Positions 6,605-12,875 of a stretch of DNA of 43,535 nucleotides are shown piece after piece. The notes below the pieces were generated by a model. The model had not been told where the DNA came from, did no database searches, and saw nothing but the letters and a program-made list of their open reading frames with translations. Source of the DNA: a virus (taxonomy: Duplodnaviria > Heunggongvirae > Uroviricota > Caudoviricetes); the IMG/VR virus record IMGVR_UViG_2740892272_000004. One strand, 5' to 3'. The position numbers and the translations under genes were made by a program. The stretch's first letter is position 1. Every line of letters starts with the position of its first letter.

Positions 6605-8659
6605 TTACGCGTTATTCACTTCCACCACGATACTGTCAATCAGTACCGGGTAAGTCGCATTTTTAGTGATATCGGTCACGCGCAACTTGTCTGCCGTAAA
6701 CGTGCCGACCGGAGACTGCGACAGCATGAATGGTGTCCCGTCCTTACCATCAATGACCGGCGTCACCTCAATACTGTTGTTACCGGCAAAACGGAAGCCC
6801 AGCGTATGCCATTCGTTATTAAATGCGCCGAATGACCCCAGCTTCGTGTTCTGCGCCGTGTTTCCTTTGTGATACATCACGTTAAGGTCTGTGGCATCGC
6901 TCTGTACGTAGAACGATGCCAGCAGGTTATGACCGGCATTTCCTTCCAGAGTAACCCCTTGCGGCAGGGCAGAAACCGGCCAGTACAGCGCCAGTGCGTA
7001 CTGATTAGCCGTAAGCGCGCCATCGAGTTTAAAACGACAACTGACAAGACCACCTTTACCCAGCAGGTCCGCACCATTACCAGCATCATGCTCAAGGTAC
7101 CAGGGGGCTCTTCCTGTTTCCTTGGTCAGTTTCATTGCCTTACCCCCGCTGGCTCCGGCATCATCCACGATTTGAGCCTTGCCACCTCCGGCAGCCCAAC
7201 CCTGTGGTGTCAACCGTCCTTCAGACTCAGATGCCCGGTAAGCAAATAGCGTACTCATCGTCGTGGTGTCTGCGGGTGGCGTGGACGGTTTTGATGGTGT
7301 ATCAGGTGACGGCTTCTCATCCGGTGGTGTCACGGTCTGCCCACGCATCAGTTCAGCCGTGCGCCCTGCATGGAGCATAATAGCTGAGGCCAGACGGTCT
7401 GAAATGACGCCCCTGCGTGCCCATGAGCTGAAATGGCTGTCACGCTGTGTCGAAACAAAACTGCCCTGGGTTCGGGATGCTGCACCGTAATACCCGACAG
7501 CCACAATATCCGGGTCTTCCGCCGGAGCATTCGTTGGCGTGCTCTGTCCATTCTCATCCGTCAGGAACGGTACAAAGAAAATTTTCTGTGCTTCCTTGCC
7601 TTTGTAGCCACCGTATACTGCCTCATATTTATCGGTGCCAGCGTTTTTCCAGTAATACGTGGTATCACCGCAAATCCACGGCACCGTGGTGGCATTTCCA
7701 CTCACGCACTGCGCAGCAAGCGGAGCCAGGTCAGTTCTGAACTGCTGAACCATGGCCGTGAATAAACTATTATGCTGCTGGCTTCCTGAGGCAAGGTCTG
7801 CCTCTCCCTGCATCCAGACCACAGCCAGAAGTTTGTTTTTCGGGTTTTTCGCCAGCGCGACTTTGGTGCGGCTTACCAGGTCCTGATACAGAGGTTTACC
7901 GGCCCCCCAGCGTGAAGAATCAGCGGAAGCACCGCTGGCCTCACTGAATGAGCCGTCGGCTCCAGTGGTGAATGCTGACCCGCCACGACAACAGGGCACC
8001 AGAAGTATCCCGGCATTCTGTGGGATATAGGGAAGCAGTTTTTTGGCAATATGCAACCCCTGACCGACAGTCCCGTACTGGCCTTTTGCCAGATCAGCTT
8101 TCGGGTGGTTTATCCCGCTCATATCCTGAACATCATGCAGGCAGTGGTCTGCCGGAATGATGTCGTTGTATGTACACGACGTACCGTTGGGCGTTACCGT
8201 ACTGCGGCGTGCCAGTTGCTTAATGCGTGGGTCCGGGCGGTCAAACGAATCCGGTAACGGCAGCCCCTCGCCGTAGGCCATGCCATTTGACTGACCCGCG
8301 AGAATGACAACAAAGTAATATTCCGGCTCTGAACTGCTGCCATTCGTGCTACCGGAAGGCCCGGCGTTATCCGGTGCATTCCAGTCGGAGGGCGTGAGCG
8401 TTCCGGCCACGTCAGATGTGATTGGAATGATGCCAGTCACGCCTGAACTGGTGATTTCTGCACTGGGATTACCGGATACCGGCATTACCCATAATGGCTC
8501 TTTCGTGCTGAAGCGGATCACGCAGTCTGCGAAGGTGATCCCCCCTTTATTACCCGAAGGGCGGAAAGGGCTTTCAATAAATGCCACCGTGCCACCGGCA
8601 ACCTTGACTGAAAACTCTCCGGGCATGGCGGAGAGCATTTTCCACTTGGAGTCTGACAT
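6605..8659 (-). CDS. Multi-domain sialate-O-acetylesterase-like (SASA/SGNH hydrolase) protein, NanS-p-like: N-terminal region, esterase core, Pro/Thr-rich linker, C-terminal lectin-like beta domain
   Basis: Contains the GQSN catalytic-serine block (VILAGQSNGMAYGEG) and the W-x-Q-G-E-x-D block (VVWMQGEADLASG) typical of the sialic-acid-specific 9-O-acetylesterase family; linker PDEKPSPDTPSKPSTPPADTTT; 684 aa. Confidence 0.75.
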   Translation of the reverse strand: MSDSKWKMLSAMPGEFSVKVAGGTVAFIESPFRPSGNKGGITFADCVIRFSTKEPLWVMPVSGNPSAEITSSGVTGIIPITSDVAGTLTPSDWNAPDNAGPSGSTNGSSSEPEYYFVVILAGQSNGMAYGEGLPLPDSFDRPDPRIKQLARRSTVTPNGTSCTYNDIIPADHCLHDVQDMSGINHPKADLAKGQYGTVGQGLHIAKKLLPYIPQNAGILLVPCCRGGSAFTTGADGSFSEASGASADSSRWGAGKPLYQDLVSRTKVALAKNPKNKLLAVVWMQGEADLASGSQQHNSLFTAMVQQFRTDLAPLAAQCVSGNATTVPWICGDTTYYWKNAGTDKYEAVYGGYKGKEAQKIFFVPFLTDENGQSTPTNAPAEDPDIVAVGYYGAASRTQGSFVSTQRDSHFSSWARRGVISDRLASAIMLHAGRTAELMRGQTVTPPDEKPSPDTPSKPSTPPADTTTMSTLFAYRASESEGRLTPQGWAAGGGKAQIVDDAGASGGKAMKLTKETGRAPWYLEHDAGNGADLLGKGGLVSCRFKLDGALTANQYALALYWPVSALPQGVTLEGNAGHNLLASFYVQSDATDLNVMYHKGNTAQNTKLGSFGAFNNEWHTLGFRFAGNNSIEVTPVIDGKDGTPFMLSQSPVGTFTADKLRVTDITKNATYPVLIDSIVVEVNNA

Positions 8660-8744
8660 CGTCTTTTCTGCCTGTTTCTGAATTAAACAGAGTCAGAATA
8701 GCGACCGCTGAAAAATATGTGTTTTGCGGAAATTCAAAAAAGCG

Positions 8745-9317
8745 TCACGGTACTTTTGGTGACGGAGCTGGTGAGGCAGGAAAATAACGATAAAGGGTGG
8801 AAAGGCCAATATCAAATATCAGTGCGATTTGTTTACGGGACTCGCCATTAGCCAGCAAACGGGCGATTTGCTCCCGCTCTTTCTCTGTCAGTTTCTGAGG
8901 TCTGCCGCCATGACGCCCCTGAGCACGGGCAGCAGCAAGACCCGCGCGTGTACGTTCAATAATGAGTTCCCGCTCCATTTCCGCCAGCGCGCCCATTATA
9001 TGGAAAAAGAAACGTCCCATGGGAGTGGATGTATCAATATTGTCCGTAATGCTGCGGAAGTTAACGCCGCGTTGCCGGAGTTCTTCTGTTAAAAGGACAA
9101 GGTGCTGCATACTGCGTCCAAGGCGATCCAGTTTCCAGACCAGCAGGGTATCCCCTGGCCGGAGTCGCTTTAATGCGCGTTTAAGTCCGGGACGCTCCCT
9201 TGTCTTACCGCTTATTCTGTCTTCGAAAAACAGCTCACATCCTGCACATTCCAGCGCATTTCTTTGTAGCGCCGTATTCTGGTCATTTGTTGACACCCTG
9301 ATATACCCAATCAGCAT
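8745..9317 (-). CDS. gin: Gin-family serine DNA invertase
   Basis: Translation MLIGYIRVSTNDQNTALQRNALECAGCELFFEDRISGKT...GRSMQHL...FHIMGALAEMERELIIERT... is near-identical in pattern to Mu Gin / Hin / Cin, with the catalytic Ser in RVST. Confidence 0.95.
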   Translation of the reverse strand: MLIGYIRVSTNDQNTALQRNALECAGCELFFEDRISGKTRERPGLKRALKRLRPGDTLLVWKLDRLGRSMQHLVLLTEELRQRGVNFRSITDNIDTSTPMGRFFFHIMGALAEMERELIIERTRAGLAAARAQGRHGGRPQKLTEKEREQIARLLANGESRKQIALIFDIGLSTLYRYFPASPAPSPKVP

Positions 9318-9382
9318 ACGATTTCCTTATTATAAAAAGCCGGAATTGTCGCATGAGGAATAAAACAGAGTTAATCCTGGCT

Positions 9383-9408
9383 TTCCTGAAAACCTCGGTT
9401 TACGGGAA
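9383..9408. repeat. gix-like recombination site, left (TTCCTGAAAACCTCGGTTTACGGGAA), outer edge of the left inverted repeat (~9384..9474)
   Basis: 26-bp site closely matching the Mu gix / Salmonella hix consensus (TTCCTGTAAACCGAGGTTTTGGATAA, recalled) with a central GA/TC core. It pairs with an inverted copy at 10700..10725. Confidence 0.7.
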
Positions 9409-9756
9409 ACGGTAAACAGGGCGGCGAATGCTCTGCCATCGGACGGCACCGCCGTTGCCGCGAATAGACTCGCCACCCCAAGAAATATTAATGGGGTTCC
9501 CTTTGACGGGACGCAGGACATAAACATCACTTCTGGTATAACACAGCAGGATGCGGATTCCCGATATATCCAGGATATCAGGCTGGGAGCAGAGAACAGG
9601 CAGGTAATGTACGGTGGGGCATATTACTCTGCGTACGGTAATGTTATGGCAGGCCTGCAGATTGACAGTAAAGTTGATGCTTCAAACGATTTTATAGCAT
9701 TCAGACCCCTGCAAAAATTAGTCGGAGGTACATGGATTACGGTATCTCAGTTATAA
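9397..9756 (+). other. Alternative tail-fibre C-terminal cassette (Sv'-like), promoterless and startless, in inverted orientation
   Basis: Open frame [26 protein letters not shown]... is identical for about 26 aa to residues 178..203 of the active tail-fibre ORF, then diverges to a different C-terminus ending at the TAA at 9754..9756. Confidence 0.7.
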
Positions 9757-9807
9757 ATAGTCAGTAAATAATATATTTTAAAACAGATTTATTTCCAGGA
9801 GGATTTT

Positions 9808-10329
9808 ATGGAACTAAAAAATATAACCCGTTATTATCCTGAAAATATGCCATATGGTAATAATGTTCAGTATTTCCAGAGTGAAGATGGTAAGGATTTC
9901 TACGAATCCCTGCCATTATTCACCAAAAAATATAAACTTTGCATAACACCTGACAGCGGCGTTATCTGCTCAATATCACAGGACGCCTCGGCGCTGTATC
10001 CTGCGGGGTTTTCTGTGGTTGAGGTCGATGAACTCCCTGAAGGCACGGATATTTCAGGAAACTGGAAGTTTGATAATGGCATAATCTCCCGTATTCCGGT
10101 TAACTACGCAAGAAAACTGGAAGCAATGCGCCAGTCATATCTTAATCAGGCATATGAAAAAATTAATGACTGGAGAACGGAGCTACAACTGGGCACCATC
10201 AGCGATGAAGACAGAGCAGCACTTACCCAATGGATGGCATACATCAGTCAGGTGAAGAAAATGGAACTACCCGCCATTAAAACAGAAGCTGAATTTAACG
10301 CCATTAAATGGCCTGAGCAGCCACAGTAA
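9808..10329 (+). CDS. Tail fibre assembly protein (U'-like Tfa) inside the invertible segment
   Basis: 173-aa ORF immediately after the Sv' cassette on the same strand; size and position match Mu U/U'. Preceded by GGAGG. Confidence 0.75.
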   Translation: MELKNITRYYPENMPYGNNVQYFQSEDGKDFYESLPLFTKKYKLCITPDSGVICSISQDASALYPAGFSVVEVDELPEGTDISGNWKFDNGIISRIPVNYARKLEAMRQSYLNQAYEKINDWRTELQLGTISDEDRAALTQWMAYISQVKKMELPAIKTEAEFNAIKWPEQPQ

Positions 10330-10333
10330 TAAA

Positions 10334-10351
10334 GAAGGCCGGAAGGCCTTC
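10334..10351. terminator. Hairpin (GAAGGCC-GGAA-GGCCTTC) between the convergent tfa and tail-fibre genes
   Basis: 7-bp perfect stem between the tfa stop (10329) and the tail-fibre stop (10361). Confidence 0.3.
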
Positions 10352-10360
10352 TGAATATCA

Positions 10361-11242
10361 TTATATACTTGCAGCCGTCACCCATGCTCCATTTAACAGA
10401 TACTGCAACGGCCGGTAATACACGCCGCCGACGTTATCTGCCGTATTCTTACCGACATCCTGTACTTTAATTCCGGTAAGAACATTGCCGCCCCCCAGAT
10501 TCAGATCCCAGCTTTCCCATGTTCCGGGCATATGTGCGGTCACCGACCCCAGTCTTATGGCGGTTACTGTTCCTGATGAGATAGTGATATCCTGCGTCCC
10601 GTCAAAGGGAACACCATTAATTGTGTGGGCATTTGCCAGCCTGTTCGCGGCAACGGCGGTGCCGTCCGATGGCAGGGCATTCGCCGCCCTGTTTACCGTT
10701 TCCCGTAAACCGACGTTATCGATAAAAGCCCCTTTATCCGGAATGTCTGCGCCGTTCTGCTCCCTGCGCAGGTAACGGTTATCACCTTCGCTTTTGCTGT
10801 AAACATCCAGATTATTACGGGCGGTTCCCTTATTCTCCAGGTCGGCGAGATTCTGATCCTTCGCCAGGGCATTAACGTCAGCGGGACCAAGACTGTTTTT
10901 TGTGGCAAGCGTCCCCAGACCAAGATAACCACGGGCCAGACGCTGGGCCTCCGCACCGGCATCAGCAATTTCTTTCAGGTTATTTTTCCGGGAAAAGGCA
11001 TTCGCAGCGATAATGGCTTTAATGGACAGCGTAAGCTGGTTTAACTGCGCCTTATCCGGCTGAATACTGGCTTCAGCCAGAATATTCAGCAGTTCGGCCT
11101 GGAGAATATTCAGCCAGTCCTGACCAATCCAGCTGATACCTTTTTGTCCGTCACCTTCGGTAAACCAGGTGGTGGTATTACTCTGCGCCGGTGCCAGCGC
11201 AGGCATATTCGCCACGCCGGAATTATTATCAACATGAAACAT
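10361..11242 (-). CDS. Tail fibre protein (Mu S-like): constant N-terminal part fused to the currently ON variable C-terminus (Sv)
   Basis: ORF crosses the right gix-like site; residues 178..203 are duplicated in inverted orientation at 9397..9474; lies in the Mu S position after the baseplate genes. Confidence 0.8.
10700..10725. repeat. gix-like recombination site, right (TTCCCGTAAACCGACGTTATCGATAA), outer edge of the right inverted repeat (~10634..10724)
   Basis: Matches the gix/hix consensus with a GA core; inverted relative to 9383..9408. Confidence 0.7.
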
Positions 11243-11802
11243 TAAATAGTCTCCTCTTCATGGCTGTTTGCATAAACGTAAATAAACGTCTGCCATGCAG
11301 GCTTATAACGGTTCAGAATACATTCCAGCGCACCGCCTTCATAAATACGCAGCGGCGTGAGAATATCATCCAGCACATTCATATTCCGGTAGCCGGTTTC
11401 ACTGTTAATCGTGACAATACTGACCCACTGCGAATCCGGTGAGGGCTGAATGTCAATCTGATAACCAAACTCCGCCGCAAACCGGATATAAAATTCACGG
11501 TTCAGCGAGGGCTTCATCCGGTATTTATTTCCGGCATAACGCTGTCGCTCCGTGAGGGTGGCTCCGGCCATATCACACTCGGGAAGCCCGAGATAACGCT
11601 CCCAGTCTTCCAGCAGCAGGCGCGACGTGTCAGGGAAACGCTCGGCAAGCAGCTGTTTACCCGTCCAGGATACACGCGCTGTCGAATGACTGAGGCCCAG
11701 ACATAATGATGCCAGTACGGATGACGGACGCTTGTCCCATGCCAGCCCGTCAGGCAGTAACTGCAACAGGGCGCGCTGATGCGGGGTCAGGGTTACAGCC
11801 AT
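11242..11802 (-). CDS. Tail protein, Mu gp48-like
   Basis: Synteny and size (186 aa) between the baseplate J-like gene and the tail fibre gene. Confidence 0.55.
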
Positions 11803-12875
11803 GTGATTTCTCCTACCGTCAGCAGCTCACTGTCTCCCGCCTGAACTGACGTCAGCGGACTGCGCACTTCAAAATCCTCCAGATTTTTCACCCCTGCCAC
11901 CGCCCGCCAGAAAGACGACGGCAGAACCAGACCGCCGGGCCGGGATTCGTTATACAACAGGTCGGTCAGCGCCTGTTTTACGGCCGCCTGATTCTCCGGT
12001 GTTTTCGGGATGATCCTGATGCTGAAGGGCACCGGCTTATTGGTCAGTTTAAACACGGTCACCGTCGGCCCCAGAGGCTGTCCGACAGGCTGGCCGGTCG
12101 CCGGATCATCATGACTGCGGATATAATCCGCCACCCGCTGAACATCACCGTCACCGGGGAAAATATCCGGGTTATTATCCTGAACAAACGTTACCCCCAC
12201 GCTGCCCGCCTGCGGCCATTCCGGGCGGCACCATGCCCGCGTCACGCCCGGCACTTCACGCGCCCAGCGTTCAAAATCATACTGCGTGCCGCCGGACGGT
12301 GGATTCTGCACCCGGAAAACCAGACGGGAAAGCAGCTCCGGCACGGTTTCCACATCCGCACCACCGGTGATCCCCGTTCCGGTCACCGTGGCCGTCTGGT
12401 TGATCCCCGCCTGCGGTGTGATAAATGTCAGTTTTGTCCCTGCCGGGGCATTCCCCGCACGACCGGCACTTTCGGCTTCCACACTGACATTCAGCGTACC
12501 GGCCTTACCGGTCAGGGAGGTGGTGATACGGTAAACCACGCCATCACTTCGCTGGAGAAGCACACCTTCCTTGATCCCCGCATCCGTGGTCAGCATCAGC
12601 TGAACCGGCCCGTCCCCCCGAGAGGCAGGCTTACGCATGACGCCCCAGAATGCACAGTGTTTCAGCAGTTCGGCTTCATCGGCTTCGGTCGGGATGATCT
12701 GACGCGCAATCCAGGCCAGATGCTCATGCTCCTGAGCAGATAACCCTGCCTGAGCGTAAGCAATGGCATTCAGGGTGGTTTCATTCACACCCGGCTGCGA
12801 GCCGGGCAGGCGCTGGCTGATATCCTGCTGTGTCTGCGTGATTAACTGTGCCAGCGGTAAAGGCTGATAAGGCAT
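11793..12875 (-). CDS. Baseplate J-like protein (Mu gp47-like)
   Basis: 360 aa; synteny with Mu gp47. Confidence 0.65.
   Translation of the reverse strand: MPYQPLPLAQLITQTQQDISQRLPGSQPGVNETTLNAIAYAQAGLSAQEHEHLAWIARQIIPTEADEAELLKHCAFWGVMRKPASRGDGPVQLMLTTDAGIKEGVLLQRSDGVVYRITTSLTGKAGTLNVSVEAESAGRAGNAPAGTKLTFITPQAGINQTATVTGTGITGGADVETVPELLSRLVFRVQNPPSGGTQYDFERWAREVPGVTRAWCRPEWPQAGSVGVTFVQDNNPDIFPGDGDVQRVADYIRSHDDPATGQPVGQPLGPTVTVFKLTNKPVPFSIRIIPKTPENQAAVKQALTDLLYNESRPGGLVLPSSFWRAVAGVKNLEDFEVRSPLTSVQAGDSELLTVGEITWL

Follow-up and report, generated by a model that had tools for sequence, protein, structure and literature searches.

The IMG/VR virus record IMGVR_UViG_2740892272_000004, a stretch of 43,535 nucleotides (the 43.5-kb window hereafter), comes from an Escherichia coli chromosome with a Mu-like prophage. 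Several complete E. coli genomes, among them JE86-ST05, HH35, PO06021, and AST46, match bases 8600–11400 of the window with 100% identity. This region contains a short segment that carries two alternative C-terminal ends (tips) of the tail fibre and is situated next to the gene of a DNA invertase. It very probably undergoes programmed inversion of the Gin/gix type, as a compact homologue of the G segment of phage Mu in an Sp18-family Mu-like prophage of E. coli. Only one gene for a tail-fibre assembly protein (Tfa) accompanies the two tips.

The tail fibre gene S (10361–11242, minus strand), as taken from the list of open reading frames (ORFs), encodes a protein of 293 amino acids (aa). Homology to Mu S delimits its constant N-terminal part, Sc (10713–11242, minus strand; ~176 codons), which is outside the segment. 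The rest of the ORF (10361–10712, minus strand) encodes the expressed tip, Sv, which comprises 116 aa after the crossover core, is similar to the tips of P2 H and P1 S, and is called tip type a below. A silent alternative cassette without a start codon, Sv' (9397–9756, plus strand; 119 aa, tip type A), matches PHROG families of tail-fibre C-termini. It is followed by the Tfa gene (9808–10329, plus strand; 173 aa), which has an AGGAGG ribosome-binding site; both are thus on the plus strand, between the fibre and the invertase. Tfa was assigned by the Pfam family Caudo_TAP (PF02413; 69.2 bits versus a curated cut-off of 22.1) and by phrog_136 (4.7e-56). Its residues 18–153 match the Mu U structure (chain 5YVQ_B, 4e-16), and it is 32% identical to Mu U' and 28% identical to Mu U. 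The convergent stop codons of Tfa and Sv are separated by a GC-rich hairpin (10333–10352), which was recognized as a terminator-like site. The original prediction, made from the sequence alone, had drawn these three reading frames with the same coordinates and strands, and its estimate of ~115 aa for the two short C-termini is close to the values found here.

Crossover sites and relationship to the Mu G segment

The invertase gene (8745–9317, minus strand) encodes a serine DNA invertase of 190 aa that belongs to the Gin family. It was identified by the Pfam domains Resolvase (1.6e-51) and HTH_7 (4.9e-15) and by phrog_125, "DNA invertase" (1.9e-94). The protein and Mu Gin share 73.9% identity over 184 aa, the best matches of the protein in the PDB are the Gin structures 4M6F and 3UJ3 (~1e-88), and the DNA-binding domain of Hin also matches (9e-13). 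It is full-length, with the catalytic-serine motif YIRVSTNDQ and the HTH domain both present. The first 60 nt of the gene are 80–83% identical to Mu gin with raised third-position identity (0.6–0.7); inversion may depend on Fis and a recombinational enhancer (sis), which would be expected in the 5' part of the gene.

Two inverted 26-bp sites resembling Mu gix bound the segment. The left, invertase-proximal site (9383–9408) is TTCCTGAAAACC-TC-GGTTTACGGGAA, with its core TC at 9395–9396, and matches Mu gix at 21 of 26 positions. The right, fibre-internal site (10700–10725) is TTCCCGTAAACC-GA-CGTTATCGATAA, with its core GA at 10712–10713, and matches at 22 of 26. The inner half-sites are identical and inverted, and both cores have one and the same dinucleotide when read from opposite strands (on the plus strand, TC at the left site and GA at the right), as inversion requires. 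The pattern AACNTCGGTTTACNGGAA, which consists of the core and the inner half, has exactly two matches in the window, one per strand, versus a chance expectation of 0.02; two or more matches occurred in 0 of 100 shuffles. The outer half of the fibre-internal site departs from Mu gix (TTATCGATAACG versus TTATCCAAAACC). The distance from core to core is 1,317 bp.

The fibre is related to that of Mu over the same region. Residues 1–198 of S, comprising Sc and the first ~20 residues past the core, are 47.5% identical to residues 1–191 of Mu S, and the match extends to the annotated boundary of the G segment. The Mu fibre structures 5YVQ and 8JU3 match the Sc region at ~1e-46. In addition to the gix match, the adjoining 14 nt on the inner side of the site (ACGGTAAACAGGGC) are the same as in Mu, which indicates that the crossover occurs at the homologous codon of the homologous gene S. 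The sites are present exactly where the original prediction had placed them, and its assignment of the segment to the Gin/gix systems is borne out by the invertase and by both sites.

The sites form the outer ends of an inverted repeat, whose left arm (9388–9536) is complementary to the right arm (10572–10720). The first block comprises 86 nt with 93% identity (9388–9473/10635–10720). Past a 13-nt divergent patch, a second block comprises 50 nt with 84% identity (9487–9536/10572–10621). A shared repeat of 78 bp had been described, which corresponds to the first block counted from the core; the repeat exists, but its full length is ~150 nt. A minus-strand ORF of 66 aa (9330–9530) runs antisense through the repeat and the left site and stops just before the start of the invertase. 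Its counterparts are annotated in RefSeq as "hypothetical protein" in both orientations, and it is most likely an artefact of the codon structure of the repeat.

Inversion in natural copies

In-silico inversion of 9396–10712 joins Sc in frame to Sv' and yields an intact fibre of 296 aa, with Tfa downstream on that strand. This arrangement exists in the genome FORC_043, in which the counterpart of window 9379–10730 is reversed with 98.97% identity and collinear flanks, and is annotated as a 296-aa fibre and then Tfa on one strand. The left arm in FORC_043 has the outer left flank of the window up to the core, and the right arm of the window from the first informative position inward; all arm polymorphisms from alignment column 63 inward are switched. 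The exchange therefore took place within 38 nt containing the core and nowhere else in the repeat. As a separate observation, the now-silent Sv cassette of FORC_043 (3765–4112 of locus L001) is frameshifted, which may reflect true degeneration of the silent copy or an error in the assembly.

The evidence on orientation comes from genome assemblies. The flipped form of the window-type element was found in 6 complete genomes and the captured form in 18 close genomes, and DLI.5a, TOE17, and AST46 each have two prophage copies in opposite orientations. Among the O157-type relatives, the Sc–Sv junction is present in 184 genomes and the Sc–Sv' junction in 15, uncorrected for clonality. The occurrence of flipped natural copies and of genomes with both orientations means that the switch operates in nature: it is real, and it is active on evolutionary time-scales. 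The original prediction had named beforehand two observations by which it would stand or fall, the inverted orientation in gin+ genomes and a similarity of the 9397–9756 frame to tail-fibre C-termini. The former is found in FORC_043 and the flipped genomes counted above, and the latter in matches to phrog_2901 (5e-25), phrog_1833 "tail fiber protein" (5e-21), and phrog_454 (1e-16).

In the proposed mechanism, the invertase would recombine the gix-like sites at their 2-bp cores and thereby flip the 1,317-bp segment, and the late tail operon on the minus strand would encode the constant Sc in either orientation. In the captured orientation, Sc would be fused to Sv to give the 293-aa fibre, and transcription would end at the hairpin. 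In the flipped orientation, Sc would be fused to Sv' to give the 296-aa fibre, and Tfa would be co-transcribed downstream. The hairpin has 8 bp (−14.8 kcal/mol, z = −3.4), and relatives with tip type b have a different but equivalent hairpin at the same position; it probably terminates the late operon whichever way the segment is turned. Because the two tips are divergent members of the receptor-binding tip domain family of Mu S, the switch is predicted to alternate host range.

One Tfa gene for two fibre tips

In the Mu G segment, each C-terminus is followed by its own Tfa gene. This feature is absent here: a tblastn search found no second Tfa gene anywhere in the window, and the single Tfa of the original prediction is correct. 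A single Tfa gene between two convergent tips is also present in the E. coli relatives STEC299, STEC2017-197, SCU-171, STEC1587, ECP19-198 (O157:H7), 2014C-3011, and STEC2018-553. This layout occurs in every relative examined, down to ~80% DNA identity, and also in a Citrobacter prophage. Outside E. coli, a scan of contigs with the fibre found only two informative relatives, Citrobacter braakii and a truncated Edwardsiella contig. The Mu-like prophage of C. braakii ATCC 51113 has a fibre of 472 aa and a different Tfa of 229 aa, which is again single and convergent with the expressed fibre. The one-Tfa asymmetry is thus a conserved design of this family, and is neither a local deletion nor a peculiarity of the copy in the window. 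On account of this conservation, the layout is classed as an architectural variant of the Gin/gix tail-fibre systems. Three gix-like sites are apparent within 5319–7723 of the C. braakii locus L018, of which the one at ~5319 pairs with those at ~7356 and at ~7723, a hint of more than two sites and of an additional cassette of ~330 bp, again with one Tfa.

Three tip types (A, B, and C) were seen at the Tfa-adjacent position (Sv') and two (a and b) at the Tfa-less position (Sv). Of the six pairings that these types allow, five were observed (A/a, A/b, B/b, C/a, and C/b); the window is A/a and the O157 type is B/b. An alignment of all five types shows a single small domain, characterized by the motifs RLG...G.V.TG...YYRP.Q...NG.W, and Sv' and the expressed Sv are 46.6% identical over 131 aligned positions. 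This domain includes the tip of Mu S, whose complex with Tfa has been solved (5YVQ), and type C is 56% identical to it. Types a and b are 44–62% identical to the tips of P2 H and P1 S variants (44–52% for the Sv of the window), each of which is directly followed by a Tfa gene on the same strand. C. braakii has a b-like tip on the Tfa side and another tip type on the Tfa-less side, and therefore the Tfa-less position is not reserved for a special class of tips.

The Tfa proteins beside A, B, or C tips can be ~90% identical across types, and those beside the same tip type can be ~65–70% identical. Tfa identity is thus unrelated to the type of the neighboring tip, and Tfa does not co-vary with it. 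The view that Tfa is cognate to the silent cassette only, also part of the original prediction, is left unsupported by this absence of co-variation and by the membership of both tips in one family of Tfa client domains. The pattern argues that Tfa would recognize a conserved part of the tip domain, present in both cassettes, and not the variable part. Comparison of window 9397–10712 with the related loci L004–L010 shows that the tip cassettes reassort freely among relatives, which makes the segment a mosaic hot-spot; recombination break-points in Tfa are situated near codon 20 and near mid-gene. Of the 8 prophage lineages inspected, 7 have an intact Sv reading frame, and the remaining one is FORC_043 with its frameshift.

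A derivative of the element is locked in the captured orientation. A deletion corresponding to window ~8811 to the 3' end of Sv' has removed the left site and the greater part of both gin and Sv'. The derivative was found in 7 complete genomes; it is frozen with Sv on and with Tfa convergent to the fibre. The deletion endpoints are identical in the three locked sequences compared. At the three insertion sites examined, the derivative is inserted in flgL in M3 (loci L003/L017), in bcsA in S1-CAM-01-A (L016), and in xdhA in CI5 (L015). Locked copies have tip a or tip b, and Tfa is always intact; their Tfa genes differ by 34–55 nt with dN/dS of 0.11–0.15, a divergence that in part probably comes from recombination. 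The simplest reading is that the Sv-on phage would be viable and that Tfa would still be useful to it, with the caveat that intactness over such a time span is not by itself a strong test.

These findings are consistent with Tfa acting as a generalist chaperone for both tips, a reading to which we give tentative credence at somewhat less than even chances. To serve the Sv fibre, Tfa would have to be made while antisense to the late operon, from a further promoter, and several observations speak against this. A scan of 8600–11400 found no plus-strand sigma-70-like promoter upstream of Tfa, with total hits at chance level, and no promoter candidate is conserved among the relatives, whose regions upstream of Tfa fall into two unrelated intergenic types. 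The 51-nt spacer and the AGGAGG ribosome-binding site look like an Sv'–Tfa operon junction, which fits Tfa expression in the flipped state only. The assemblies are skewed ~9:1 toward the captured, Tfa-antisense orientation, although many are clonal O157 genomes and the counts are not independent. Two hosts of locked copies, JE86-ST05 and CI5, also have an unlocked copy, from which fibre or Tfa could be supplied in trans. The copies are at 690454 and 812348 of NZ_AP022815.1 in JE86-ST05, and at 4273744 and 4873039 of NZ_CP011018.1 in CI5; such two-copy genomes allow phenotypic mixing, with invertase, fibre, or Tfa provided in trans. Among the candidate signals considered, a match to TGGACA-17-CATATT exactly at the deletion junction of the locked derivative was dropped, as hits there are also at chance level; neither promoter scan is relied on here. 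A motif for C-dependent late promoters could not be defined from the com/mom upstream region, which in the window is unlike Mu Pmom. An Rfam search of 8000–12000 (E ≤ 1) found no match.

Several of the same observations would fit a tip-specific use of Tfa, in which it serves the Sv' fibre only and Sv folds unaided or with a Tfa from another prophage. Tfa immediately follows Sv', has a strong ribosome-binding site but no predicted promoter of its own, and, in the orientation that dominates, runs antisense to the late operon. Many additional "tail fiber assembly protein" matches exist in E. coli genomes, in which several other Tfa genes are usual. This reading seems doubtful, since tips of types a and b in the P1 and P2 relatives always precede a Tfa gene on the same strand, the b-like tip on the Tfa side in C. 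braakii argues against a self-folding class at the Tfa-less position, and the locked Sv-on derivative retains an intact Tfa. Under tip-specific use, which we likewise regard as rather unlikely, one orientation would give a bare tip and the other a tip that Tfa matures and perhaps also caps; Mu Tfa is reported by North et al. (2019) to remain bound to the fibre tip, and the complex is PDB 5YVQ. The segment might instead be a decayed G segment, from which a second Tfa was deleted, so that the captured orientation is a crippled or "off" state with poorly folded fibres. The two Tfa genes in each of Mu, P1, and e14, the shorter segment (1.3 kb versus ~3 kb in Mu), and the frameshifted silent Sv of FORC_043 point in that direction. 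Such decay is improbable in view of the one-Tfa layout in all relatives examined and in Citrobacter, the Sv frames that are mostly intact and have diversified into types a and b, the prevalence of the Sv-on state in assemblies, and the occurrence of the Sv-locked gin-deleted derivative at at least three insertion sites in unrelated strains. Least probable is a fossil switch, with a dead invertase or dead sites and with flipped copies arising by occasional homologous recombination between the ~150-nt repeats. It could draw on the deviating outer half of the fibre-internal site and on the strongly skewed counts. It conflicts with the full-length invertase and its catalytic serine and HTH domain, with the matching cores on opposite strands, with the confinement of the FORC_043 exchange to 38 nt around the core, and with flipped copies in several unrelated lineages and inside two-copy genomes. 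For the dominant Tfa-antisense state, the generalist reading retains the difficulty of the promoter.

Genomic context and related systems

The prophage is a member of the Sp18 family of E. coli O157. It has the Sp18-type layout of S, segment, gin, DUF6645 esterase, DUF1378, DUF826, com, and mom, an order common to O157-type prophages. On the tail side, the fibre gene is preceded by genes for a Mu gp48-like protein (11242–11802, minus strand) and a baseplate J/gp47 protein (11793–12875, minus strand). The order in closely related annotated loci is tape measure, DNA-circularisation protein, baseplate gp45, gp46, gp47, gp48, and then S. ORFs of the size of MuA and MuB are situated at 38571–41673, as judged from the ORF list by size alone. 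Three minus-strand genes (5988–8659) that have no counterpart at this place in Mu separate the invertase from com/mom. They encode a 684-aa protein with a SASA sialate-O-acetylesterase domain and DUF6645 (6605–8659), a DUF1378 protein (~6278–6460), and a DUF826 protein (~5988–6242). The nanS-p/DUF826/DUF1378 block found in Stx and lambdoid prophages is presumably similar to this trio; if so, the module may have been taken up from such prophages. Within 4418–5420, the mom and com genes encode proteins with 78% identity to Mu Mom and 45% identity to Mu Com, respectively. The region upstream of com has GATC-containing repeats (ATCGATCG…TCGATCGAT) and is unlike Mu Pmom. The prophage apparently ends near 4340, with host DNA on its left.

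By mechanism, the segment is a genuine member of the Gin/gix invertible tail-fibre systems, and it is a modest architectural variant of them. It shares with the Mu G segment a Gin that is 74% identical, gix sites that match at 21–22 of 26 positions, and a crossover at the homologous codon of S. In both, a constant N-terminus outside the segment joins either of two C-termini (293/296 aa here), the invertase gene is just beyond the segment and has the same direction as the late operon, the tips are of the Mu S family, and com and mom are further downstream. The differences lie in the length of the segment (~3.1 kb in Mu versus 1.3 kb here), in the variable part (~335 aa versus ~116–119 aa, with no shaft region here), in the presence of U and U' in Mu versus one Tfa here, and in the esterase/DUF1378/DUF826 module between gin and com/mom. 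Sp18 of E. coli O157:H7 Sakai has the same gene order and one-Tfa layout and ~80–86% DNA identity across the region, and both orientations occur among O157-type genomes. It differs in its tips (B/b versus A/a here) and in the C-terminal half of Tfa. An earlier report notes that the invertible host-specificity region of Sp18 is distinct from that of Mu (Asadulghani et al., 2009; PMC2669165). No description of the one-Tfa asymmetry was found in the literature searched, including passages of PMC2669165.

The C segment of P1 with Cin and the P segment of e14 with Pin have serine invertases of the same subfamily and alternative fibre C-termini on an invertible segment. A P1 variant even has a tip that is 52% identical to the Sv of the window; its segment is symmetric, however, with Tfa genes at 3728–4252 (plus strand) and 4287–4844 (minus strand) of locus L011. 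e14 is likewise symmetric with two Tfa genes, and its inversion affects tfaP, tfaE, stfP, and stfE (PMC12529663). The Hin/hix system of Salmonella has an invertase of the same subfamily and 26-bp sites with a 2-bp core. Hin flips a promoter and swaps no coding ends, and hin is inside its own segment.

Invertible tail-fibre segments are a textbook case of programmed host-range variation, and the segment described here adds no new principle to host-range switching. Its value is as a minimal and naturally replicated version, with a short fibre, ~117-aa tips that reassort, one Tfa, and a natural locked derivative. With this combination, the specificity of Tfa chaperones for the tips that they fold can be tested directly, which bears on the swapping of tips to engineer the host range of phages and tailocins. 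Should a single Tfa fold all five tip types (A, B, C, a, and b), tips would be exchangeable without co-transfer of a chaperone.

It is conceivable, although we would put it well short of an even chance, that the single Tfa is a deliberate design and not a loss, in which Tfa is either an orientation-independent generalist or inversion toggles the tip together with its maturation or capping by Tfa. The generalist version needs an unrecognised promoter that reads against the late operon. The toggle version would describe a phage with two mechanistically different fibre states. If either version is true, a tip-specific pair of Tfa proteins would be unnecessary for host-range switching of the Gin type, and this prophage family would provide a natural system for asking what Tfa proteins recognize.

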